Source of the DNA: Enterobacter phage CC31
Strand: one strand, 5' to 3'
Length of the DNA stretch: 64,000 bases
Sequence record: NC_014662.1
Below are positions 5,605 through 41,478 of this stretch, piece after piece. The first letter of the stretch is position 1. Each line of letters starts with the position of its first letter. Below the pieces are notes generated by a model. It was not told where the DNA came from. It saw only the letters and a list, made by a program, of their open reading frames with translations, and made no database searches. Made by a program: the position numbers and the translations under genes.

Positions 5605-5871
5605 TTAGCAGTTTTTGACGTATTCGTAGATAGCACGAGTCAGTTCAGCCGCTTCATCTTTTTCAATATCTGAAATCAGAGCATAGATAGCATTAGTGAT
5701 TGAGCTTGGGCGATGACGAGCAGCACTAATTGAAACTTCTGTCATACACGAACGACCACGAAGAACAACTTCAACGTTGTTGATTTCAATGTTCATACGT
5801 TCTTGACCACGGCTTTCAGAACGAATGAAAACTCCTAACTCGACAGTTACTTTCTTTTTCAGTGTAATCAT
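5605..5871 (-). CDS. hypothetical protein
   Basis: 88 aa ORF preceded by early-type promoter at about 5898-5928. Confidence 0.4.
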   Translation of the reverse strand: MITLKKKVTVELGVFIRSESRGQERMNIEINNVEVVLRGRSCMTEVSISAARHRPSSITNAIYALISDIEKDEAAELTRAIYEYVKNC

Positions 5872-5934
5872 GTTACTCTCCTTGGTTGGTGTAAGAGTAT
5901 AGTAACACCTTCCGCAACGGATGTAAACGGTTGG

Positions 5935-6681: not shown

Positions 6682-7167
6682 TTATTCAGGATGTTCATTG
6701 TGTTCCTCATTCCAAGTTCCGCTGTTAATCCACAGCCTTTGATTATCACTGCCTCTCCAAAGCTTTTTAGTTGGTAGAGACTGTTCATATTTACCATCGA
6801 TAATAACATCAACATAATTTAGCAGTTCCAAGTCCTTGATATCTTCGAACTTGTATCCCGTCCACATCCAAACATCTTTGTGAGGGTGACTATTATGTAA
6901 GCACTTGAGTAGTGCTTCTATAGTTTCTCTATTGTCTGGATAAAGAGGGTCTCCACCTGTAAGAGTGATTCCTTGAATGTAATCTTTGCTTAAAAGCTCT
7001 CTGATTTCTTCAATGGTTTCACCGGTGAACTCTGTTCCATTACGTGGATTCCATGTGGATTTATTATAACATCCTTCACATTTATGCAAACACCCGGTGA
7101 CGAAAAGAACGACCCTGCAACCAGGGCCATTCACAAAATCACAAGGATAGATTCTGTCATACTTCAC
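6682..7167 (-). CDS. nrdG: anaerobic ribonucleotide reductase activating protein NrdG (radical SAM)
   Basis: 161 aa; CDFVNGPGCRVVLFVTGCLHKCEGC cysteine motif; probable GTG start; adjacent to nrdD. Confidence 0.9.
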   Translation of the reverse strand: MKYDRIYPCDFVNGPGCRVVLFVTGCLHKCEGCYNKSTWNPRNGTEFTGETIEEIRELLSKDYIQGITLTGGDPLYPDNRETIEALLKCLHNSHPHKDVWMWTGYKFEDIKDLELLNYVDVIIDGKYEQSLPTKKLWRGSDNQRLWINSGTWNEEHNEHPE

Positions 7168-14619: not shown

Positions 14620-15389
14620 ATAACCACCTTAGTTGGGCGCTTAAAGAACGAATGAGTGCTATCGTCTTTAGCATGTTCAAAAGTTGCAGAGAATTCAATG
14701 ACTCCACGATAATCCATCGGAACTGCTTTTGGCAGAGAGCCGTAGACCGTTGCACCGTTTTCAAGACGGACAGTCATTTTGACTTGCATCCCGTAATAAT
14801 CTTCCCAGCACTTAACTGAGACGACTTTACCTTTAACTATTTGCTTGCCAGTAGGTGCTTCGCCTTTGTTCTTTTTGAACGATTCATACAGTTCATCAAA
14901 GAACTTCTTAGAAGCTTCTTGAATAGCCGCAAGAATGTTCTTATGAGCTCTGACTTCAACCATCATAACAGTGGTGAAATCTTCAAGTTCCCAACGTTTG
15001 TAAGGTTCACGGACCTCGATAGGATGTCCGTAAAGTTTAAGTTCAACATACATTGCTGCAGTTAAACGAAGTTTCCACCATCCATGGTCTCCTGTATACT
15101 CTGGTTTATCAAAGTAATCAAGTTCCGTGACGTATGGAAGATAACTACCAGCGTGATATGCTTCCACTTCGCCTAAATCATTTTCCCAGAGATAACCATC
15201 GAACGGAGCATGTGGACGATCATCAATTCCCCAGGTTGGAGCAACCACCTTATCAAATCCTTCACGACCGTAGCGGGTCTTCGCCCATCCAGCATTCAAC
15301 TCCAAAGCGCGTTCTTCAACTTTCGCTCGGCGTGCAGCATGTGCTTTACGATTTTCATCTAAGATTGAATCGATGATTTCAGTTAACAT
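14613..15389 (-). CDS. hypothetical protein
   Basis: Track ORF 14613..15467 starts at GTG; trimmed to ATG at 15389 (MLTEIIDSIL) with GGAGA RBS and early promoter at about 15425-15450. Confidence 0.45.
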   Translation of the reverse strand: MLTEIIDSILDENRKAHAARRAKVEERALELNAGWAKTRYGREGFDKVVAPTWGIDDRPHAPFDGYLWENDLGEVEAYHAGSYLPYVTELDYFDKPEYTGDHGWWKLRLTAAMYVELKLYGHPIEVREPYKRWELEDFTTVMMVEVRAHKNILAAIQEASKKFFDELYESFKKNKGEAPTGKQIVKGKVVSVKCWEDYYGMQVKMTVRLENGATVYGSLPKAVPMDYRGVIEFSATFEHAKDDSTHSFFKRPTKVVIC

Positions 15390-15519
15390 TTTGTTTCTCC
15401 ATTGGTTGATTACGAGACTATCATATACTAGCTTTTCAAGGATGTAAACGGTTGAATGCGGATTCACCAGAACGGTTGAGAGGAACTTTCTTGGGAAGGA
15501 TGATAAATCATATTACGAG

Positions 15520-15549
15520 GATACAAAAATGCCCCAGCGAAGCCGGGGC
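15520..15549 (-). terminator. rho-independent terminator
   Basis: Hairpin GCCCC-N9-GGGGC followed on minus strand by ATTTTTGTAT, right after stop of 15555..15986. Confidence 0.5.
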
Positions 15550-17620: not shown

Positions 17621-18598
17621 TTATTTCAGCATAGTTACTTCAGCAATTTCAGTCCAGTTTTTCTCGTCGGTAGCGACGAAATCTGCCAGGTAAAGAGCTG
17701 TGCGGAGAGATACATTACGAAGGCGATTAACGTTGTTTTGCATAAATGCCAGAACGTCAAGTACTTGGTAGTGTTTTAAGCCGCGGTTCTGCAACATGTC
17801 GGTTGTCATAATAACATCTTCAACGCGAGACATGATTTCTTCGTTTGTGTGAACACCGAGGTCCAGATAAACAGAACGAGATACCAAAGCAGAAAGATGA
17901 GGAGCTAATTTGCTACCACGTTCTAATTCTTTATCAATATCAACGTTTGTGATGAAGACGACAGTACCTTCAAATTCAAATTCGTTTGGAATATCTTTTT
18001 CTTCCAGGAAAGCAGAAGCAGTTGACCAGCAAACTTTACGTTTTTCGCCAGAATCAAGAGCAGCTTTCAGAAGGTTCAGGATGTCCATATCAGAAAATAC
18101 GTCCACATCATCAATAAGCAGAACAGAATTTGAATGACGAGATTCCCAGAGACGGCAGTAAAGACCGATGCCAGAAATCTTACCGTTAACCATTTTGTAT
18201 TCAATATCACCGCGAGCATCTGCTTTAGTTAATGCTTTATCTAAGGAGAAAGTTTTACCGATACCAGCAGCACCTGAGATAATCAGTGAACGAATGTTTC
18301 CGTTAACCAGACCAGCAGTCATTAACCCCATAACGTTGAAGCGTTTAGCGATACGTGCTTTCATTTCTTCAACAGATTCGGTCAGAACTTCTTTAGTTAC
18401 TTGACCTTCAATTTTGTAATCACCGTGGAAAACCCATACTCCACGTTTCTTACCATCAATCATTACGAATACTTTACCATCACCCTGAGCAGCGTCAGCT
18501 TCAGATAAATCTTTTGGGAACCACTGATCAATGAATTCAAAAGTACCAGAAATTTCTTTACCGAAGTTAGTACCTTTGGTGATAGTGATGGTTTTCAT
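17621..18598 (-). CDS. P-loop NTPase (AAA-like ATPase), unknown function
   Basis: Walker A GAAGIGKTF and Walker B VLLIDDVDVF; start trimmed to ATG 18598 (MKTITITKG) with GGAG RBS and early promoter at about 18636-18666. Confidence 0.55.
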   Translation of the reverse strand: MKTITITKGTNFGKEISGTFEFIDQWFPKDLSEADAAQGDGKVFVMIDGKKRGVWVFHGDYKIEGQVTKEVLTESVEEMKARIAKRFNVMGLMTAGLVNGNIRSLIISGAAGIGKTFSLDKALTKADARGDIEYKMVNGKISGIGLYCRLWESRHSNSVLLIDDVDVFSDMDILNLLKAALDSGEKRKVCWSTASAFLEEKDIPNEFEFEGTVVFITNVDIDKELERGSKLAPHLSALVSRSVYLDLGVHTNEEIMSRVEDVIMTTDMLQNRGLKHYQVLDVLAFMQNNVNRLRNVSLRTALYLADFVATDEKNWTEIAEVTMLK

Positions 18599-18669
18599 TT
18601 TTGTTCTCCGAGTTTCTATTTGTTTGGTATGAGGTAATAGTATCATCATCTCATACCGTTGTAAACAAT

Positions 18670-19078: not shown

Positions 19079-19291
19079 TTAGCTTTCCAAAATTTCGTTG
19101 ATGTAGTAAGGACGAACTGAAGAATTCAGGAAGAATTCATCTACGAAGTCAATCAGAGCATCTGAAGTACCTTCCAAAACGATGTAATACTTTTCTGAAA
19201 TTTGCTTTTCAGAAGTGATTTCAACTTTATACTCCTGTGCTACTGCTTTAGCTTGAGCGATATTTTTAACTACGATTTCTAAAGTTTTCAT
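19079..19291 (-). CDS. hypothetical protein
   Basis: Trimmed from track ORF 19079..19402 to ATG 19291 (MKTLEIVVKN) with AAAGGAGAA RBS; early promoter at about 19305-19340. Confidence 0.4.
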   Translation of the reverse strand: MKTLEIVVKNIAQAKAVAQEYKVEITSEKQISEKYYIVLEGTSDALIDFVDEFFLNSSVRPYYINEILES

Positions 19292-19356
19292 TTTGTTCTC
19301 CTTTGGTTTTGATAGTGCTATAATACCATATGCTATAGCGCTTGTAAACATTATTT

Positions 19357-19641
19357 TTAAGCAATGTATGGAGTTGCTGAACCGTCTGAGTAACGCGCCC
19401 ATACTTCATTGCCAACGTTGAAAAGTTTTGCTTTACGACCATTAGGCATCTGAACCATTTTGCTTTTAACCGGAGTTACAGCTTCAATCAACGTTCCAGC
19501 AGCTTTTGCATTTTCTTTAGTTTTAAGAATTTTTTCCATGTATTCAACGTATTCGATGATAGCAGGTGCCATATGCTGTTTGTGGCCCATACCGCCAAAA
19601 TCGAATTCAGTTACTGCGTAGAAAATTTTTGAAGTAGCCAT
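19357..19641 (-). CDS. hypothetical protein
   Basis: Trimmed to ATG 19641 (MATSKIF) with AAGGA RBS; early promoter at about 19676-19721. Confidence 0.4.
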   Translation of the reverse strand: MATSKIFYAVTEFDFGGMGHKQHMAPAIIEYVEYMEKILKTKENAKAAGTLIEAVTPVKSKMVQMPNGRKAKLFNVGNEVWARYSDGSATPYIA

Positions 19642-19725
19642 TTTATTATCCTTGATTTTGTTACCGTTTAGTTGATAGAGATATAGTATCAAAACTTAAA
19701 GCATCTGTAAACACTTTTTGAAAAC

Positions 19726-23698: not shown

Positions 23699-23964
23699 CT
23701 CAGCTGTGAATCTTTTGAACCGCGTCTGTTGTAAGACGCTTTAATAATAGTGTCATGTGAGCTTTGGCAAGCTACGCATCGGGTGCATCCTTTTTGAGCT
23801 TTGCGTCTAGCTTCCGGAATTTCTCCGTCACAATCTTCACAGTATTTTTCGCTCTCACGATTTTGAGATTTGATGAGCTCTAAACGAGCCCATTCAATTC
23901 CATCACTTACTGTAGCTTCAATAGCTGCAAATCCGTCGTCACTTGGACCCCATCCACTTGCCAT
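23695..23964 (-). CDS. TraR/DksA-type C4 zinc-finger protein
   Basis: 89 aa; CEDCDGEIPEARRKAQKGCTRCVAC (CxxC-x14-CxxC) typical of TraR/DksA family. Confidence 0.5.
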   Translation of the reverse strand: MASGWGPSDDGFAAIEATVSDGIEWARLELIKSQNRESEKYCEDCDGEIPEARRKAQKGCTRCVACQSSHDTIIKASYNRRGSKDSQLR

Positions 23965-23987
23965 TACAAACTCCTTTGAACGAGGTC

Positions 23988-24018
23988 CATTATACCATTA
24001 ACCAAGTTGTATGTAAAC
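23988..24018 (-). promoter_or_regulatory. sigma70-type early promoter (GTTTAC -35, TATAAT -10)
   Basis: Minus strand reads GTTTAC-N18-TATAAT immediately upstream of 23695..23964. Confidence 0.55.
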
Positions 24019-24098: not shown

Positions 24099-24530
24099 TC
24101 ATCGTAGATGTCCCAAGCCATTCTTTCTTCCAGAACTCGGACTGGTGTCCCAATAGTCCGCATATTCTTGGTCTTCCGGAGAAGAGAATTTATTTGCTTT
24201 AAGTTCAGCCATAAATTCCAAAGCAGATTCAACATCACCGAACAGCCGGTTCAAGTTGTGAGGTTTACGTTTATGGTCTTCAAATACTGCGTTATCACCC
24301 GGGCAAATTTGAGTACGATAAGAACGCTTTGTTTCGCCGTTGATGTCAGTATACTCGCAGATGATATCAACCATCAAGATATCTGATGTTGGGCTACGAT
24401 ATGGTTTACTGAGGATAATGTACTTGCTAACTTCATCCAGCGACACTGTGGTTTCAGTACGAGATACACCGTACACGTGATACATGATACGACCTGGAAC
24501 GAAATCAGATAATTTAGTAATGCGATTCAT
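24099..24530 (-). CDS. hypothetical protein
   Basis: Trimmed from track ORF (24635) to ATG 24530 (MNRITKL) with AAGAGGAGAA RBS; early promoter at about 24559-24588. Confidence 0.4.
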   Translation of the reverse strand: MNRITKLSDFVPGRIMYHVYGVSRTETTVSLDEVSKYIILSKPYRSPTSDILMVDIICEYTDINGETKRSYRTQICPGDNAVFEDHKRKPHNLNRLFGDVESALEFMAELKANKFSSPEDQEYADYWDTSPSSGRKNGLGHLR

Positions 24531-24595
24531 GATGTTCTCCTCTTGTTTGTGTAAGGTCATAGTATCACCTTTTGAAGAGGATGTAAACGGTTCAT

Positions 24596-28957: not shown

Positions 28958-29422
28958 TTATAACTTGATAATCTTTGTGCTGATTTTACCTTTCAAGCGT
29001 TTATCATTTACGAATGCCATGCGACATTGCATGGAGTGACCGCGGAACGGGTGTTCTGGGTTTGGTAGAGAGACAGTCATTCCAAGCCATAGAGTACCAT
29101 CAGTGATTTCCAAACGCTGAGGCCTGTATTCTACTTCTGGGTCAATTTCCGATGGGTCAATAGGAAGCATCGGCATTTCTAAGAACTCGTGAATTTCTGT
29201 TACGTGATTGTGTACTTTGTGGAACAGAGCGAACACATACTCTTCATCAATCTCCCGTTGGATAGCACGGTCCAAGAGATGATTAGAATATTTAATAAAG
29301 AAAGCTGGGATACCAGCAGATGCGCAAGCACTACGTATAGAATCGTTTACACTCTTGAACTCAGTCTCAAAGCGACGACGTAGCTTGTTTCGGCGGATGA
29401 ATACTTCTGGATTAGTTGTCAT
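28958..29422 (-). CDS. regB: RegB site-specific endoribonuclease
   Basis: MTTNPEVFIRRNKLRRRFETEF...LLDRAIQREIDEEYVF...EYRPQRLEITDGTLWLG...LQCRMAFVN matches T4 RegB; start trimmed from TTG to ATG 29422 with AAAGGAG RBS. Confidence 0.9.
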   Translation of the reverse strand: MTTNPEVFIRRNKLRRRFETEFKSVNDSIRSACASAGIPAFFIKYSNHLLDRAIQREIDEEYVFALFHKVHNHVTEIHEFLEMPMLPIDPSEIDPEVEYRPQRLEITDGTLWLGMTVSLPNPEHPFRGHSMQCRMAFVNDKRLKGKISTKIIKL

Positions 29423-29448
29423 TTTCAATCTCCTTTGTTGATAGGGCT

Positions 29449-29478
29449 ATAGTATCATAGCCCTTGGAGAAAGTAAAC
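29449..29478 (-). promoter_or_regulatory. early promoter (GTTTAC -35, TGATACTAT extended -10 inside inverted repeat) for regB
   Basis: Minus strand GTTTAC-N18-TACTAT; -10 lies within AGGGCTAT/ATAGCCCT dyad; element duplicated at 39109-39138. Confidence 0.5.
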
Positions 29479-29750
29479 TAGTAGTTTTGGTCGTCATAGA
29501 ACACTTGAAGCAGAACGTTGTTACGTAACCGCTTTGTGTCAGCTAAACGTTGTCTAAGCTTGGAGATTTTGTCCTGTACCCGGTTAAACTCTTCTGAGGT
29601 TGACGGGTCATGAATCTTCATAGCCTCATCCACAAGCTGCTCCATCTTTTCTTCCATAGCATTAATAGCTTCAGAGAAAGATTCGGAGACTTTGTTGCGG
29701 ATAGACATTAGTACTTTTCTTCTGGTTGAAACACTGAACGGCATGCCCAC
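29478..29750 (-). CDS. hypothetical protein
   Basis: 90 aa helical ORF. Confidence 0.4.
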   Translation of the reverse strand: MGMPFSVSTRRKVLMSIRNKVSESFSEAINAMEEKMEQLVDEAMKIHDPSTSEEFNRVQDKISKLRQRLADTKRLRNNVLLQVFYDDQNY

Positions 29751-30890: not shown

Positions 30891-30928
30891 TCCAAGAGCC
30901 CGAAGGCCCTTATTAAAATTTTCTTTCA

Positions 30929-31670: not shown

Positions 31671-31967
31671 TTAACTAAACGGGTCGTGGAGCTTATTACC
31701 GACACGACGGAACACTTTAGCTGCAAATTTATTGGAAGGGTTATCAACCATGACTTTGCGCATGTGACCGGTCGCAACTGTTCGAGCAGCCTTATAACCA
31801 GCAATATTATCTTTCAAAGTAATTCGACCTTTTCCTTTAGGGTCATCAATGGTCACTTTGTAAGTTCCCATATCTTCGCCAGGCTTAATTTCTTCAATCC
31901 AGATATAACCACCTGGGACTCGCTTTTGTTCAGCGGCTTCAGTAATAAATTCGTTGTAGGTTTTCAT
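31671..31967 (-). CDS. internal head protein (IP) with capsid-targeting N-terminus
   Basis: 98 aa; N-terminus MKTYNEFITEA matches the T4 IP capsid-targeting sequence; flanks denV as ipII/ipIII do in T4. Confidence 0.7.
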   Translation of the reverse strand: MKTYNEFITEAAEQKRVPGGYIWIEEIKPGEDMGTYKVTIDDPKGKGRITLKDNIAGYKAARTVATGHMRKVMVDNPSNKFAAKVFRRVGNKLHDPFS

Positions 31968-31975
31968 TTTAATCC

Positions 31976-32392
31976 TTAGTTGTAAATAGCCTTACCATAA
32001 TGTTTATACCACTTAGGCCGTTGAGCAATTTTTTCGTCCAGACGTGCTTGAGAAATTTTAAGAGCGTCAGAAGTTGGAATGTAATCATTACGCCACTCGA
32101 CCGGAATATCACTAATGTCCTGGGCAGTTGTGTCCTGGATTTTAAAACCTCGTTTTAAACATTCAGCAATAATGTTGATTTGGCGTTTATGCAAGAACTC
32201 AAGTTTATCATAAAAGAAAGTAACATGACCTGTACCTAAAATGAAAACCGAAGAGATTTTAAAATCCTTAAGCTTTTTACCATTTTGAACATGCTTACGA
32301 ACGGCACCAAAAACACGTGGCAATTCACGATACTCAGCCATAAGATGTTGGTCGGCCAGTTCAGATACTAAAGTTAAGTTAATGCGTGTCAT
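31976..32392 (-). CDS. denV: DenV endonuclease V (pyrimidine dimer DNA glycosylase)
   Basis: 138 aa; [34 protein letters not shown]...[10 protein letters not shown] nearly matches T4 endo V. Confidence 0.95.
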
Positions 32393-32418
32393 TTTTAATC
32401 TCCGTTTGTTTGGTATGA

Positions 32419-32452
32419 GAGTATCATAACATGGACAAACGGAGATGTAAAC
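32419..32452 (-). promoter_or_regulatory. early promoter for denV
   Basis: Minus strand GTTTAC then GATACT-type -10 within GGTATGAG dyad, upstream of denV ATG 32392. Confidence 0.45.
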
Positions 32453-32742
32453 TACTTTCTAGTCAAAGATTTGATTTTTCCTACAAGTTTATCTTTCTTA
32501 ATGCCTTTATGATAGTCTTTACCTACCATCATGAAATAAGTTCCAGTAGTAGGGTCAAAGTTAACAGACACACGAGTACCATTAACATCGATATCACGTT
32601 GATTTATAACACGACTTACTTTACCGAATTCAGCGGCTAGAATAGTTTCAATTTCTTCTGCGCCTTTAGTAGCGGCCGCATAAAGTTCTTTGCCAGACAT
32701 TTCACGTTTAGCTTCAAACATAAATTCATTATAGGTTTTCAT
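32452..32742 (-). CDS. internal head protein (IP) with capsid-targeting N-terminus
   Basis: Track ORF trimmed to [11 protein letters not shown] start at 32742. Confidence 0.65.
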
Positions 32743-33223
32743 ATGCTTTCCAAGTACCTGTTTTAAATGTTGCAATCACGCGTTTAGCACGATTTGGTGT
32801 CTGACGATACCACTTGGAATTAGCAAGCTCTTTTGCAGCTGCTTCCCATTGTTTTGATTTAAGCAGACGCATTGACGCTGGGAAACTAGCTACACCTGCT
32901 ACACCCATCTGAAACACCATATTAATAAGTGCAGCACGACGAACTCCATCAAGTACATCATATACTGGTTTTAATACAGCATTTCCGAGAATCCCTCGAG
33001 TTGCTTTATCGACGTCTTTCGCAAAAATAGCTTCTGCTTCAGCTTTTGTGATTTGACCATTACATGGGCGTCCCACAAGCTTATCAAGTTCTCGTTTAGC
33101 AACATCAAGAGAAGGGTCACGTGTCAAAAGGTGACCGATACCGATTGTCCAAAAACCTTCGGTATCTTTATAGATTTTAGAATCGTATCCTTCATCGATA
33201 CGAAGCATGCCAAAAATGTCCAT
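32729..33223 (-). CDS. e: lysozyme e (endolysin, T4 lysozyme family)
   Basis: 164 aa; [12 protein letters not shown]...[15 protein letters not shown]...[15 protein letters not shown] strongly matches T4 lysozyme including catalytic E11/D20 context; AGGAGG RBS. Confidence 0.95.
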
Positions 33224-35679: not shown

Positions 35680-35712
35680 TTTATTTTCCTCATAGGGCCC
35701 GAAGGCCCTTTA

Positions 35713-36630
35713 TCATTTGAACGGACGAATCATATCAAAGTTTTGTTTAAAGCGTTTGACATAATCTGTCTTTCCAAGTTTCTTATGCATTGCAACTATC
35801 TTATGGTAGTTTTCCCATGCATATTCACGAAACCAGCCAGATGTAATGCTAGTACAAACTTTTTCCAAAGCGTACATAAATGAACCCGTAGGGTCTGGGT
35901 TGAAATTATTTGGAATTTGATGGCGTTCTAAAGCAAGTACACAAGTTTCTTCATATACACCTGCAAGCTTAAGTTCTTCAGGAAGAGAATCGAACTTCTC
36001 TTTTGAAGTCATTACTTCAGAGCCATCTTTCATGTAGAAAGTATAAGCAGGACGACCAGCTAAAGCCACTGCTTCATGAATTGAATCGTGGTCATAGATG
36101 TAAAAATCATCTTTAAAGAAAGAATCTTTATCTACATCCAGATTAGGATGAGAATATGCTAATGTTTCTTTCTGGCGCAGTTCAGAAATCTTTTTCAGTT
36201 TACTGTCTAAAACAATTCCTTTATTACGCAAGAAACGAATATGATGCATAGTCTTTTGAAAGAAACGAGTGTTCTTCTTGAAACGATGAGACATCTTAAT
36301 TGCTAAGCACATCTCAGGAGTTGCCCAATACATCTGTGAAAGCGCATCATAGCACCCATTAAATACTGCGTAGTGAGCAAGCAGTTCAGATGAACTCTCG
36401 TCGTTATATTCAAAAATGTATGCTTCAAAATAGGTCTCACGACCATTATGCATGCATTTAAAGGCTTGTACATTAGGAGATTGAACTTCGACCTCTGTAC
36501 CATTCATACGGTTTTTGAAATGGAGCCATTCGCCCGGAGACGCGATGAAGTCCCAATCAGAATTCTTAACATCACTGTACTCAATGAGTCCATGGTGATG
36601 TAGAGCTCTAGAACCAATAACCAGCAACAT
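35713..36630 (-). CDS. hypothetical protein, 305 aa
   Basis: ATG with AAAGAGGAAAA RBS and early promoter at about 36660-36688; N-terminus LLVIGSRALHHHG...SDWDF faintly NTase-like but not assignable. Confidence 0.45.
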   Translation of the reverse strand: MLLVIGSRALHHHGLIEYSDVKNSDWDFIASPGEWLHFKNRMNGTEVEVQSPNVQAFKCMHNGRETYFEAYIFEYNDESSSELLAHYAVFNGCYDALSQMYWATPEMCLAIKMSHRFKKNTRFFQKTMHHIRFLRNKGIVLDSKLKKISELRQKETLAYSHPNLDVDKDSFFKDDFYIYDHDSIHEAVALAGRPAYTFYMKDGSEVMTSKEKFDSLPEELKLAGVYEETCVLALERHQIPNNFNPDPTGSFMYALEKVCTSITSGWFREYAWENYHKIVAMHKKLGKTDYVKRFKQNFDMIRPFK

Positions 36631-36659
36631 AATATTTTCCTCTTTAGAATGTAGAACTA

Positions 36660-37001
36660 CTATAACACACTTGACTGATGTTGTAAACGGTTCTTTCTAC
36701 ACATTCTGATGAAGTTTTCAATAGGCTCTTCTGGTCTATTGGCTGGATAGCATTTCTTCCAGTTCCACCCTCCCAGCAAGTCAAAGATTTGGTCAGGAAG
36801 AGAATCCCATGGATGTTCTCTTTCGCGGAGTTGAAGCACAATATCACCGGCTGCTTCTCTAATTCCAGTATCAAGTTTTCCATTACAAATCACGACATCC
36901 ATGAGTACTGCAAGACAACAACTATCATGGCTTCCGTATTTGTTCGGATAGTAGAAATAATGGTCAATAATGTAGCAGCAATTACGGTCTAAACCTTTCA
37001 T
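36660..37001 (-). CDS. hypothetical Cys-rich protein
   Basis: Track ORF trimmed to ATG 37001 (MKGLDRNCCY) with GGAGGAA RBS; hairpin at 37022-37044 between it and tRNA-Gln. Confidence 0.4.
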   Translation of the reverse strand: MKGLDRNCCYIIDHYFYYPNKYGSHDSCCLAVLMDVVICNGKLDTGIREAAGDIVLQLREREHPWDSLPDQIFDLLGGWNWKKCYPANRPEEPIENFIRMCRKNRLQHQSSVL

Positions 37002-37064
37002 AGTGTTCCTCCAGTGATTCTGGGGAAACTTTTCAGTTTCCCCATATATTACCATTAACAGCTG

Positions 37065-37137
37065 CTAGTGTACCTGGACTCGAACCAGGGAATCGTAGAA
37101 TCAAAATCTACTGCCTTACCAACTTGGCTATACCCCA
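37065..37137 (-). tRNA. tRNA-Gln (anticodon UUG)
   Basis: Minus strand TGGGGTATAGCCAAGTTGGTAAGGCA-GTAGA-TTTTGAT-TCTAC-...CCTGGTTCGAGTCCAGG; anticodon loop gives TTG; coordinates approximate. Confidence 0.7.
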
Positions 37138-37143
37138 ACTGTT

Positions 37144-37220
37144 TGGAGGCGGGTGATGGACTCGAACCATCGCGTAACGGGATATGAACCCGTCATTCTA
37201 CCAACTGAAGTTAACCCGCA
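37144..37220 (-). tRNA. tRNA with CAU anticodon (Met or lysidine-type Ile)
   Basis: Anticodon arm ACGGG-TTCATAT-CCCGT, T arm GATGGTTCGAGTCCATC, CCA encoded; pos 1:72 mismatch and irregular D arm lower confidence. Confidence 0.55.
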
Positions 37221-37340
37221 CTTATCCGGATTCCTGAAGTACAACGGCTGCTTTATGTAGAACTCACCTATTGTGAGGGAACAAAATCACTGGTCCTGGC
37301 ATTAATTATGGACCACCATCTTCAGGAACTGCCTCGTATT
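37221..37340 (-). ncRNA. structured spacer in tRNA cluster, candidate small stable RNA
   Basis: About 120 nt without ORF or tRNA; long-range complement ttcctgaagt/acttcaggaa and internal hairpin GGTCC...GGACC; T4 carries two small RNAs of unknown function in its tRNA cluster. Confidence 0.3.
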
Positions 37341-37416
37341 TGGCGGACCTAACGGGATTCGAACCCGTGACTCTCACGTGACAGGCGAGTATTTTCACCG
37401 CTGAAACTATAGGTCC
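37341..37416 (-). tRNA. tRNA-Asp (anticodon GUC)
   Basis: 76 nt with CCA; acceptor GGACCTA/TAGGTCC; anticodon arm CTCGC-CTGTCAC-GTGAG; T arm ACGGGTTCGAATCCCGT. Confidence 0.7.
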
Positions 37417-37658
37417 AAATTATCTTTCGTGATTATGTGAATCCCTCAGGTTTTCCGGAAAACCGAATAGGCGACAAAAGCTCTCATATACCCGTGCACA
37501 GATATAATCTTTGTTAACTAGTGTCTGAATCAGTATAATCCGAAAGATAACTTTCGGCGCCGTATTTAATTTGAGATATGTAGTTATCGTTGAGGGAACT
37601 CATATTCAGGGATTAACATGCCGACGACTTTGTCAGAACGTCTTCCAACTTCTATATT
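37417..37658 (-). ncRNA. structured spacer in tRNA cluster, candidate small stable RNA(s)
   Basis: About 240 nt without ORF or canonical T-loop; hairpins GGTTTTCC/GGAAAACC and CCGAAAG-N4-CTTTCGG. Confidence 0.3.
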
Positions 37659-37743
37659 TGGCGGGTCGTGCAGGTATCGAACCTGCCTAGTCATTTCTGA
37701 CACGGATTAACAGTCCGCCGCTTACCCTCTCAGCCAACGACCC
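37659..37743 (-). tRNA. tRNA-Asn-like (anticodon GUU) with unusually long variable arm
   Basis: 85 nt with CCA; perfect acceptor GGGTCGT/ACGACCC; anticodon arm GCGGA-CTGTTAA-TCCGT identical to the recalled E. coli tRNA-Asn arm; 15-nt variable region GTCAGAAATGACTAG. Confidence 0.6.
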
Positions 37744-37748
37744 AAATT

Positions 37749-37823
37749 TGGTTCTCCGTAAGAGAATTGAACTCTTCTTTCCGACGTGAAAGGCCGGCGT
37801 CCTAACCGATAGACGAACGGAGA
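37749..37823 (-). tRNA. tRNA-Glu (anticodon UUC)
   Basis: Acceptor TCTCCGT/ACGGAGA; TCGTCTA...GGAC D arm; anticodon arm CCGGC-CTTTCAC-GTCGG; T arm AAGAGTTCAATTCTCTT; CCA encoded. Confidence 0.75.
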
Positions 37824-37824
37824 T

Positions 37825-37902
37825 TGGTAGGACGTGAGGGAGTTGAACCCATCGACATTCCGATTAAAAGTCGGATGCTCTAACCAACTGAGCTAACGTC
37901 CT
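37825..37902 (-). tRNA. tRNA-Lys (anticodon UUU)
   Basis: Acceptor AGGACGT/ACGTCCT; D arm TAGCTCAGTTGGTTAGAGC; anticodon arm TCCGA-CTTTTAA-TCGGA; T stem pairs imperfectly in my reading. Confidence 0.6.
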
Positions 37903-37940
37903 GTAGATATTTATAATAACAAAAATATCTTTAAGCAAAT

Positions 37941-38016
37941 TGGTGGGAATAACTGGACTCGAACCAGTGACCTAACGATTATCGGTCGTTTGCTCTACCA
38001 ACTGAGCTATATTCCC
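37941..38016 (-). tRNA. tRNA-Ile (anticodon GAU)
   Basis: 76 nt: GGGAATATAGCTCAGTTGGTAGAGCA-AACGA-CCGATAA-TCGTT-AGGTC-ACTGGTTCGAGTCCAGT-TATTCCC-A-CCA. Confidence 0.7.
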
Positions 38017-38022
38017 TGAATT

Positions 38023-38110
38023 TGGTGGGGAGTGATGGAGTCGAACCACCCGAGTCGCAATGACAACAGATTTACAGTCTGCACCGCTACCTCTACGGAA
38101 TTAACTCCCC
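38023..38110 (-). tRNA. tRNA-Tyr (anticodon GUA), type II
   Basis: Acceptor GGGGAGT/ACTCCCC; anticodon arm GCAGA-CTGTAAA-TCTGT; long variable arm with GTC/GAC stem; T arm GGTGGTTCGACTCCATC; CCA encoded. Confidence 0.7.
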
Positions 38111-38915: not shown

Positions 38916-39081
38916 TTGCAATTTTATCCATAACGAATGAAATGATACCAGCAACGAGTGTAAGTACTACGCTACTGATGAGTTCAGAATTTGAAAGGAA
39001 CGGCCATCCGAAGATTGAAGTTCCAAGTGCTCCCAGGGTTACTACAGTAAAGATGTTTCCGATGATTTCGCAACGTTTCAT
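38902..39081 (-). CDS. hypothetical small membrane protein (59 aa, below track threshold)
   Basis: ATG at 39081 preceded by GGAG RBS and the duplicated regB-type promoter/leader; hydrophobic MKRCEIIGNIFTVVTLGALG... Confidence 0.35.
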   Translation of the reverse strand: MKRCEIIGNIFTVVTLGALGTSIFGWPFLSNSELISSVVLTLVAGIISFVMDKIANEPN

Positions 39082-39108
39082 TTTTAATCTCCTTGTGTTG
39101 ATAGGGCT

Positions 39109-39138
39109 ATAGTATCATAGCCCTCAAGGAAAGTAAAC
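39109..39138 (-). promoter_or_regulatory. early promoter, near-identical copy of the regB promoter/leader
   Basis: ttgttgatagggctatagtatcatagccct...aaagtaaac repeated at 29438-29480 and 39091-39138. Confidence 0.5.
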
Positions 39139-39146
39139 GGCTAAAA

Positions 39147-40157
<1,011 letters not shown>

Positions 40158-40887: not shown

Positions 40888-41478
40888 TTACCTCATAGAA
40901 GGATGCATTCCAACAGATGAACGAGACTGAGCAGCCTGTTCGATATTTTGTTTACCTACTATGATTTTACCATCTTTTTCTATTTGCAAATACTTGAATG
41001 GGAACATTGCAGTGCAAATAACCGCTGGGTCAGTATCTTCAGTATAGCTGAATTCTACTTCGCCTAAATCAGAACACCAAGCTCCATAATAATGAAAACT
41101 CATTACAATTTTCTTCTTGGAGTTATCAAGCATATGCACAGAAACATGTGGTGGAGTGAAGCCAGGTTTCCACGCTTGAGAGTTAAAATCAATGTAGTTA
41201 TTGATTGAAAGCATCCATTGATACATCTGAAGCCAAGAGTTTAAGTCTTCATCGACTAAAAAGCGTATGACCAGTGGGTCATGCTCAAAAGTTGAACCTG
41301 GCAGTTGAGAACGTGCCAGACCACCTTGTCCAGATGGAGTTTCAGTAATAGGGATGCGTATACCTGGTATTGTAGCTGATTGTACGTTAAGCGTAAAAGC
41401 TTTTGTCAATCCAGCATCAGGAATATCTACTATAAAGTTAGTAATATTCGTTTGGTTAAAAAGTTGATTAGCGTCCAA
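40888..41478 (-). CDS. 3: gp3 tail completion / sheath stabilizer (by synteny)
   Basis: 196 aa ORF between genes 1 and 2 as in T4; TTG start in track, exact start uncertain. Confidence 0.6.
   Translation of the reverse strand: MDANQLFNQTNITNFIVDIPDAGLTKAFTLNVQSATIPGIRIPITETPSGQGGLARSQLPGSTFEHDPLVIRFLVDEDLNSWLQMYQWMLSINNYIDFNSQAWKPGFTPPHVSVHMLDNSKKKIVMSFHYYGAWCSDLGEVEFSYTEDTDPAVICTAMFPFKYLQIEKDGKIIVGKQNIEQAAQSRSSVGMHPSMR

Follow-up and report, generated by a model that had tools for sequence, protein, structure and literature searches.

Early promoter and stem-loop cassettes in the early region of Enterobacter phage CC31

A stretch of 64,000 nucleotides from Enterobacter phage CC31 (sequence record NC_014662.1; hereafter, the window) contains a family of eleven promoters, each placed with a short leader and a Shine-Dalgarno (SD) sequence before a gene. 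These units are here called cassettes, and each is named by the position of the G in its GTTTAC element. The minus strand carries all genes of the first 44 kb. The early-gene region comprises nrdC-type open reading frames (ORFs), tk, vs, regB, denV, e, a tRNA cluster, and an internal head protein gene; beyond the last of these lie gp57, gp1, and gp3. Around the cassettes, the sequence is 91–93% identical to that of Karamvirus phages of Enterobacter, Cronobacter, and Klebsiella: PG7, fGh-Ecl01, Pet-CM3-4, and UFV01.

In several cassettes the promoter −10 element lies within an inverted repeat. The most probable account is that the cassettes combine T4-type early promoters with stem-loops of a known kind, the promoter-early stem-loops (PeSLs) defined in phages RB49 and phi1; that they serve also as recombination joints; and that their stems act at the RNA level.

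A discrete family of early promoters

Twelve matches to GTTTAC-N18-TAnnnT are present in the window, where 0.80 ± 0.85 are expected (100 shuffles, none reaching 12). Eleven copies are on the minus strand, at 39138, 36688, 32452, 29478, 24588, 24018, 19712, 19349, 18666, 15449, and 5928; a first-pass annotation of this DNA had proposed "at least ten". Each of the eleven motifs is followed after 21–37 nt by an SD sequence and an ATG that opens a real ORF; the distance from GTTTAC to this ATG is 57–73 nt throughout. All lie on the early strand, between 5.9 and 39.1 kb; the late region, on the plus strand, has none. When a weight matrix is derived from the members, their own scores are 36–60, and the next best site on either strand scores −7. 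Because of this gap, the family is discrete: it has no weaker members, and is absent from the late-gene part of the window. A repeat search found it to be the largest repeat family in the window.

The promoters share a common architecture. GTTTAC occupies positions −36 to −31, and when the −35 is read as TTTACN-N17-TAnnnT, the spacing is 17 nt in all eleven. A TGn extension of the −10 is present in all copies except 15449. The weight-matrix consensus downstream is TGnTACnAT nnnCCTA, C-rich at −3 to −1; a preference for C at these positions was reported for RB69, RB49, and 44RR by Nolan 2006, whose T4 early-promoter consensus was used for comparison. The consensus given for PST/T4 PeSL promoters, TTTACW-N17-TAYWAT (Comeau 2014, PMC4122927), fits eight of the eleven; copies 24018, 36688, and 5928 deviate. 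In T4, where regB is known to have a typical early promoter, the same arrangement stands before regB, denV, ipII, and ipIII. The proposed resemblance to T4 σ70 early promoters thus extends to every feature compared: the −35, the 17-nt spacing, the TGn, the C-rich −3 to −1, and the place before early genes. The sequence supports the assignment of all eleven sites as σ70-dependent, T4-type early promoters, and for annotation they can serve as markers of the early transcription units of phage CC31.

A generic TTGACA/TATAAT scan of the window gave no excess over chance, and is uninformative about the GTTTAC sites either way. A TGCTTTA in the 19712 spacer was considered as a MotA box (middle promoter) and rejected, as it lies 8 nt from the −10, not 11–13. 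Two further minus-strand sites were noted. TTTTAC-N18-TACAAT at 41369–41398 lies inside a coding region, is conserved in relatives, and has no SD or ATG; it is probably no family member. At 7063–7132, a strong terminator (7132–7107) is followed by a promoter-like TTTGCA-N16-TGnTATAAT (7090–7063), which falls outside the GTTTAC family.

Stem-loops around the −10 element

The first-pass annotation also placed the −10 at the center of dyad symmetry in most copies, quoting three examples. All three are present, and the symmetry exceeds chance in a shuffled control. With the −10 fixed and the flanks shuffled, the summed best arm is 52, compared with 39.6 ± 3.1 (one of 2000 shuffles reaches it); arms of at least 5 bp occur at 7 of 10 independent sites, where 2.4 are expected; and the excess is greatest in the 10-nt bin containing the −10. 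(Several of the eleven promoters are paralogous, and ten were counted as independent in the dyad test.) "Most copies" was too generous, since by folding energy only four of the eleven are significant: 29478, 39138, 18666, and 32452 (z −3.3 to −7.2; 0 of 200 shuffles as good), which represent three independent cases. Copies 5928 and 19349 are marginal, and 19712, 24588, 36688, 24018, and 15449 are at chance.

A terminator scan identified canonical terminators next to three promoters on their upstream side (24588, 19712, and 5928), and ~80 nt upstream of a fourth, 15449. Four copies have a significant stem over the −10, and four others have a terminator upstream; the remaining three, 36688, 24018, and 19349, have a weak stem or none in the window. 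Counting stems of at least 8 bp in either the window or the PG7 copy, five of the seven promoters without an upstream terminator have one, versus none of the four with a terminator (Fisher p ~0.045). This complementary distribution is suggestive of one stem-loop per cassette, closing the upstream unit. Where only about 60–80 nt of intergenic space is available, overlap of stem and promoter would be unavoidable; at promoters with a normal terminator upstream, the −10 dyad is weak or absent. Separately, a GC-rich palindrome, AAGGGCCCGAAGGCCCTT, is present in three copies (2240–2264, 30894–30918, and 35693–35717); it is terminator-like on either strand, and forms a small repeat family of its own.

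The individual cassettes

The cassette before regB (29420–29478, on the minus strand like all that follow) has GTTTAC at 29478–29473, the −10 TACTAT at 29454–29449, a predicted +1 A at 29442, and the ATG at 29422–29420. Its inner stem pairs AGGGCTAT (29464–29457) with ATAGCCCT (29450–29443; z −3.3). An outer helix pairs an anti-SD, TCTCC (29470–29466), with the SD GGAGA (29433–29429). RNA from the −35 to the ATG folds at −18.6 kcal/mol (z −4.5). The TAG stop codon of the upstream gene overlaps the −35 of this cassette.

A second copy of this cassette (39079–39138; ATG 39081–39079) precedes an ORF for a 59-residue, tRNA.4-like membrane protein. It has the corresponding inner stem (39124–39117 with 39110–39103; z −4.4) and an outer helix between CCTTG (39129–39125) and CAAGG (39095–39091), which overlaps the SD. 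The −35 to ATG RNA folds at −21.6 kcal/mol (z −5.8), and its SD pairing exceeds that obtained with shuffled upstream sequence (p ~0.013). The earlier description of these two leaders as almost identical is borne out: 29478–29420 and 39138–39079 differ by five substitutions and one indel over ~59 nt (~90% identical). Homology ends at the cassette edges, and the flanks are unrelated. Most of the differences affect the outer helix and its partner, with 5 bp to the cognate SD region retained in both copies.

The denV cassette (32390–32452) contains an 11-bp inverted repeat, ATCTCCGTTTG (32446–32436) and CAAACGGAGAT (32408–32398), with z −6.8. The repeat encloses both the −10 and the predicted start, and the SD lies within its 3′ arm, such that the helix ends in GGAGAT. 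For the −35 to ATG RNA the z is −6.4, and SD pairing again exceeds that with shuffled upstream sequence (p ~0.003). In the cassette before an nrdC.10-like gene (18596–18666), the stem GGTATGAG (18657–18650) with CTCATACC (18633–18626) holds the −10 in a 16-nt loop (z −7.2).

In the other seven cassettes, the dyad is weak or lacking. Before an ORF of 70 codons (19289–19349), GCTATA (19339–19334) pairs with TATAGC (19322–19317; z −1.3); the PG7 copy of this stem is 9 bp (AGTGCTATA/TATAGCACT), and the window copy has a C·A mismatch. The cassette before the 88-codon ORF (5869–5928) has a 5-bp dyad, GGTGT-N12-ACACC (z −1.6), and directly upstream of its −35 a terminator, GGGGACC-ctagc-GGTCCCC with a T-run (5966–5948). 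The 94-codon ORF is preceded (19639–19712) by a weak dyad, TTGATA-N9-TATCAA (z 0.1), with its canonical terminator just upstream (19761–19744). Likewise, the cassette before the 143-codon ORF (24528–24588) has a weak dyad, AAGGT-N9-ACCTT (z −0.5), and a terminator upstream (24633–24609); its spacer contains CCTCTT, complementary to the SD AAGAGG. No significant dyad is present before a gene for a DksA-like zinc-finger protein, named from its PG7 counterpart (23962–24018; −10 TATAAT; z 0.4), or before the 305-codon ORF (36628–36688; z 1.0), where the promoter overlaps the end of the upstream ORF (36660–37055). The cassette before the 258-codon ORF (15387–15449) has neither dyad (z 0.3) nor TG extension; its upstream terminator is at 15549–15531.

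At 18666, 19349, and 39138, the TAA of the upstream gene comes 3–12 nt before the −35. The layout is that of a PeSL: an upstream stop codon at the 5′ end; an SD and start codon at the 3′ end. An Rfam search over the whole window returned only tRNAs, and no RNA family at the cassettes.

In nine of the eleven leaders, GGAG is followed by an A-rich run (for example, 29433–29423, 39092–39082, and 18613–18601). This is the shape of target described for RegB with S1 (Durand 2006). RegB is known to cut its own SD, and RNA structure has been reported to protect GGAG from RegB. Early mRNAs that start with these leaders, that of regB included, are probably RegB substrates.

Pairing is conserved where sequence and position are not

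Phage genomes are labeled here where needed: L001, PG7; L002, fGh-Ecl01; L003, Pet-CM3-4; and L012, IMGVR_UViG_2706796299_000001. More distant T4-like phages for the regB and nrdC.10 loci were taken from IMG/VR (L105–L113, L129, L130, L132, and others). An IMG/VR scan with GTTTAC-N16-TGATACTAT returned 77 contigs, mostly unrelated, and missed known relatives; it was not used.

Even within the window, the stronger stems differ in both sequence and loop: AGGGCTAT-N6, GGTATGAG-N16, ATCTCCGTTTG-N27, and GCTATA-N11. PG7 adds TGATGAGGTA-N12 and AGTGCTATA-N11. At the regB locus, the −10 is enclosed by a stem in every lineage that has a GTTTAC promoter, and the sequence of the stem is particular to the lineage. 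Phages of the window type have AGGGCTAT-N6-ATAGCCCT; L110 and L111 have GGGCCAT-N6-ATGGCCC, with one compensatory pair relative to the window; L105–109 and L113 have ATCTCCTGTAG-N23-CTACAGGAGAT; L112 has TCTCCTCTTTATG-N19-CATAAAGAGGAGA; and another lineage has GTGTAG-N18-CTACAC. T4 regB forms a long helix (−22.4 kcal/mol; z −5.8) that includes the SD. Fold z is below −2 in six of eight non-redundant regB upstream regions.

The nrdC.10 locus, orthologous to 18666, was compared in 14 lineages. In some the stem encloses the −10; in L130 and L132 it surrounds the −35, with a T-run between it and the −10; in L129 it covers the −35. The remaining lineages have a canonical terminator upstream and no dyad in the promoter. 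Fold z is below −2 in eight of the 14.

In the denV helix, GUUUG/CAAAC of the window corresponds to UGUAG/CUACA in T4 (arms TCTCCTGTAG/CTACAGGAGA), amounting to three two-sided compensatory pairs in an otherwise identical helix. (These pairs were read directly from the sequences; a MAFFT alignment of the denV and regB cassettes put the arms out of register.) The homologous 7 kb of T4 contains four GTTTAC promoters, those of ipII, denV, regB, and ipIII. The first three lie in hairpins with the −10 in the loop (z −4.4 to −6.0), the ipII stem being 14 bp; ipIII has an 8-bp dyad around the −10.

These patterns bear on the two functions that the first-pass annotation had suggested for the dyads. 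As operators, they would be bound by a dimeric regulator, of the phage or of the host, under whose control early promoters are turned on or off. Two-fold symmetry centered near the −10 is what such a regulator might use, and how T4 early promoters are shut off is described as not fully understood (Uzan and Miller 2010, PMC3014915). Operators should nonetheless share a half-site at fixed spacing, and here there is no common arm sequence, loops range from 6 to 27 nt, and four or five members have no dyad at all. No single dimeric regulator could recognize all of the strong stems. Orthologous promoters replace both arms while pairing is kept, including changes of the G·U type (L003, GGTGAGGTA), and in other lineages stems lie around the −35 or upstream. 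The operator reading is barely credible. Nor does a role in promoter melting agree with stems that, in other lineages, may enclose the −35 or lie upstream as terminators. Because pairing is kept while sequence and position relative to the promoter boxes vary, the dyads are best read as an intercistronic nucleic-acid structure, neither operator nor melting aid.

Recombination at the cassettes

Relatives contain chimeric promoters, which are direct evidence of exchange at the cassettes. In fGh-Ecl01, the flank of the 19712 promoter is joined at GTTTAC to the 19349 promoter, and the 94-codon ORF between them is gone. In Pet-CM3-4, the 5′ half of the 19712 promoter is joined within TGATACTAT to the 18666 leader, which then joins a gene like the 70-codon ORF at a shared GGAGAACAAAATGAAAAC. 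UFV01 lacks the DUF4031 ORF; in all, the 19712/19349/18666 spot has four architectures in five genomes. Cassettes coincide with places where relatives have gained, lost, or replaced sequence, and chimeric elements mark these joints.

Cassettes also recur before different genes. Relatives have two or three copies per genome of an exact 20-mer core of the duplicated cassette; these copies stand upstream of at least four different genes, and at the tRNA.4 locus the upstream flank varies among phages right up to GTTTAC. A cassette with GTTTACATCTCCTGTAG...CTACAGGAGA is shared by T4, where it precedes denV, and L105-type phages, where it precedes regB. Relatives also have a third and a fourth copy of the AGGGCTAT cassette; the flanks of these have no match in the window, placing those copies outside the window or leaving them absent from the phage.

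Internal-protein (IP) genes figure in several exchanges. The IP gene at 39147–39455 has a 47-nt conserved patch (39411–39457, minus strand) that encodes its N-terminus, MKTYQEF.., with sister patches at 32698–32744 and 31923–31969. In Pet-CM3-4, the body of this gene is swapped between the N-terminal patch (breakpoint 39406) and the 39138 cassette (39144). Three minus-strand ORFs (31671–31967, 32452–32742, and 39147–39455) share only the N-terminus MKTY(Q/N)EF.xEA, and one matches the PHROG "internal head protein"; the three look like members of an exchangeable set of internal proteins that have a targeting peptide in common. The 32452 cassette itself belongs to a module (an additional IP-like ORF, the promoter, and a denV allele of 74% identity) that is absent from this place in the four relatives. 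Across 31976–32742, denV is 74% identical to the allele of the PG7 group, and the flanks are 91–95% identical; denV lies upstream of the gp127-like IP gene in the window, and downstream of it in PG7. Together, the IP genes and the divergent denV module are base-level examples of module exchange at promoter cassettes.

Seven of 36 distinct homology breakpoints (39144, 18678, 19301, 19350, 19652, 19683, and 32392) lie in cassettes, which make up 2.2% of the sequence; against a uniform null the enrichment is strong. Chimeric promoters in relatives show that conserved stretches of the −35, the −10, and the leader serve also as short patches of homology, where related phages lose, gain, or exchange gene modules.

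An alternative is that the stems act in DNA, either by extrusion of a cruciform or hairpin at the −10 that affects the open complex, or as a mark for a structure-specific recombination nuclease. The −10 is in the loop in the strongest cases. Arbiol 2010 (PMC2839356) speculate on a protein that recognizes GGGG..CCCC stems, and their summary of Mosig 1998 mentions T4 deletions at GGGC..GCCC repeats, which the duplicated cassette also has. This alternative is improbable: the position of the stem relative to the promoter varies by lineage; many members are stemless; and the chimeric joints lie in shared GTTTAC and TGATACTAT, not in the arms. Arms of 8 bp around loops of 6–16 nt should, moreover, extrude poorly.

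One further rearrangement was noted. Relative to PG7, the window lacks ~8.3 kb (L001 28276–36609) that holds ~12 tRNAs and ~20 small ORFs. The junction is at 37064–37074, where the flanking matches overlap by ~10 nt at a tRNA-Gln gene. The window has eight tRNA genes at 37064–38110: seven found by ARAGORN, and one more by Rfam (38026–38110).

Which RNA would carry the hairpin

In the −10-embedded stems, the 3′ arm extends to −1 relative to the predicted start; in the long ones it spans +1. Because this start lies inside or after the 3′ arm, RNA initiated locally would lack the 5′ arm; the stem could form only in RNA reading through from upstream promoters, or in single-stranded DNA. The model that follows joins the parts. 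Each cassette comprises a σ70 early promoter with extended −10 (TGnTAnnnT), a short leader, and a GGAG SD, as a compact, repeated unit. The hairpin would be confined to read-through RNA, leaving the local transcript free of it, and may mark the end of the upstream unit through attenuation, termination, or protection of 3′ ends.

In the subset formed by regB, denV, and tRNA.4, an anti-SD in the spacer is predicted to pair with the SD, such that the SD is free only in RNA from the cassette's own promoter; folding and covariation both point this way. At 32452, 39138, and 29478, as in T4 regB and denV, the 3′ arm covers the SD and the 5′ arm lies upstream of the predicted start. At five cassettes, the SD pairing probability, computed from the partition function, is 0.93–1.00 in read-through RNA versus 0.15–0.65 in RNA started at +1. 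At regB, covariation preserves the hairpin arrangement in T4 and in no fewer than four further lineages. In these three cassettes, SD gating is treated as real.

Extended to every cassette, the idea becomes one of general translational gating, by the principle established for T4 late promoters and here placed at early ones. In its favor, beyond the three clear cases and the retention of 5 bp with the SD in both duplicated copies, mean complementarity between spacer and SD is higher for cognate than for non-cognate pairs (8 of 5000 permutations), a signal carried by three or four cassettes. A general rule is unlikely, since the stems of 18666 and 19349 have their 3′ arm before +1 and leave the SD unpaired. 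For these two, the SD pairing probability of the read-through RNA is 0.17–0.27, compared with 0.40 at 19712 and 0.46 at 24018; the SD-sequestering layout is lacking at 18666, 19349, 19712, 24018, 36688, and 15449. SD occlusion as a family-wide rule was rejected, having failed the shuffle and cognate/non-cognate controls given below; it holds for the subset only. A different hairpin was noted at the PG7-type denV promoter (L001 23577–23633): GTCCTCC-N9-GGAGGAC, beginning just after the −10 and covering the SD. Judged by its pairing, this hairpin follows the same gating logic with unrelated sequence.

For regB the arrangement would have a particular consequence. An early promoter inside a hairpin with an anti-SD (for example, TCTCC right after GTTTAC) could limit both translation and the exposure of GGAG to RegB to RNA from its own promoter. 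This proposal is tentative, and somewhat more doubtful than not. If it is true, regB production would be tied to the 2–3 min life of its own promoter, and expression from a cassette would be independent of where recombination drops it.

A number of observations weigh against the model of promoter, RNA-level stem, and recombination joint. The +1 is itself inferred, placed by spacing at the A of a conserved ATCAA motif, which recurs in all lineages examined. No T-run follows any −10-embedded stem, and the terminator scan lists none of them; their 3′ flanks are A/C-rich (ATCAAC, AAACAAA). Classical intrinsic termination by these stems is not supported, and their RNA-level role is an inference. 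A significant stem is missing from four or five of the eleven promoters, and 36688 and 24018 have neither stem nor upstream terminator. Shuffled upstream sequence alone gives SD pairing of 0.5–0.8. Pairing of at least 0.9 occurs at four of ten sites where 1.8 are expected, a count matched by 25 of 300 shuffles, and spacer/SD helices of at least 6 bp are as common in non-cognate (32%) as in cognate (36%) combinations. Finally, a null based on gene boundaries is estimated to expect ~3.8 of the breakpoints in cassettes, making the seven observed a weak enrichment.

Uncompensated mismatches in the 19349 stem of close relatives also count against the model. Such decay, in the window and in L002, could be taken to mean that the dyads are functionless by-products of quasi-palindrome templated mutation, or scars of recombination; half of the family is stemless, and the L012 cassette has a slipped tandem duplication. 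(The duplication comprises the −10 and the 3′ arm, TACTATTACCTCATCAAgaTACTATTACCTCATCAAAA, and looks like slippage.) By-products would hardly be expected to be position specific, in strong excess over shuffles, and distributed in complement to upstream terminators. In many lineages, moreover, a given locus again has a stem, of different sequence and with compensatory changes. This explanation is very improbable, and the combination of T4-type early promoter, RNA-level stem-loop, and recombination joint is preferred.

Comparison with known systems

PeSLs were defined in RB49 and phi1 as a strong σ70-like early promoter plus a stem-loop, followed on the 3′ side by SD and ATG. Experiments showed that they have promoter and terminator-like activity and that they form mini-circles; the elements are concentrated in hyperplastic regions, at indels (Arbiol 2010, PMC2839356). 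The cassettes of the window resemble them in four respects: upstream stop codon, −35/−10, stem-loop, SD, and start codon form one composite; the stem, which in RB49 and phi1 is most often between the −35 and −10 or over the −10, is placed likewise; many repeats occur in the early hyperplastic region before small ORFs; and they occupy sites where close relatives differ by insertion, deletion, or replacement, the joints being marked by chimeric elements. They differ in three. The RB49 promoter is a near-perfect TTGACA-N17-TATAAT, whereas that of the window is T4-type (GTTTAC, TACTAT). RB49 and phi1 stems are of the form Gn-loop-Cn, whereas those of the window are of mixed sequence, 5–11 bp, with no T-run. 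Terminator activity and mini-circles were measured in RB49 and phi1; the window elements were compared by sequence.

PeSLs were later extended to T4/PST and to nt-1/KVP40 (Comeau 2014, PMC4122927). Copies 24588, 19712, 5928, and 15449 resemble the PST/T4 elements in having the stem-loop upstream of the promoter. The PST/T4 description places the stem just upstream, whereas several stems of the window, and those of T4 regB, denV, and ipII as read here, enclose the −10. A full-text literature search for PeSLs returned nothing on Karamvirus. The cassettes extend the PeSL picture to this group, with a promoter of T4 type and a stem placement like that of RB49.

Early promoter and stem-loop elements are also known to flank the IP genes of T-even phages (Repoila 1994, as summarized by Arbiol 2010). 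The 39138 cassette similarly follows an IP gene directly, the gene whose body has been exchanged in Pet-CM3-4; this comparison draws on the Arbiol 2010 summary and on the T4 sequence.

Intrinsic terminators, like the cassettes, place a stable stem-loop at the end of a transcription unit, and four window promoters have a true GC-rich stem and T-run upstream. The −10-embedded stems differ in their A/C-rich 3′ flank, and fail a stem-plus-T-run scan.

In T4 e, soc, 49, and I-TevI, a promoter inside an SD-sequestering hairpin frees the SD (Uzan and Miller 2010, PMC3014915). The regB, denV, and tRNA.4 cassettes would work in the same manner, with the 5′ arm before the start and the 3′ arm over the SD: the long RNA closed, the local RNA open. 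The T4 examples have late promoters and serve temporal control, whereas here the internal promoter is early, and the arrangement is limited to a subset of cassettes. An SD-hiding hairpin at early promoters was not described in the literature compared, which did not extend to Piesiniene 2004, Repoila 1994, or the first papers on regB. The one point possibly beyond the literature is the hairpin conserved at the regB promoter, with the SD hidden in it. In structure and in comparison among relatives, as far as sequence can indicate, the cassettes of the window have the characteristics of PeSLs.

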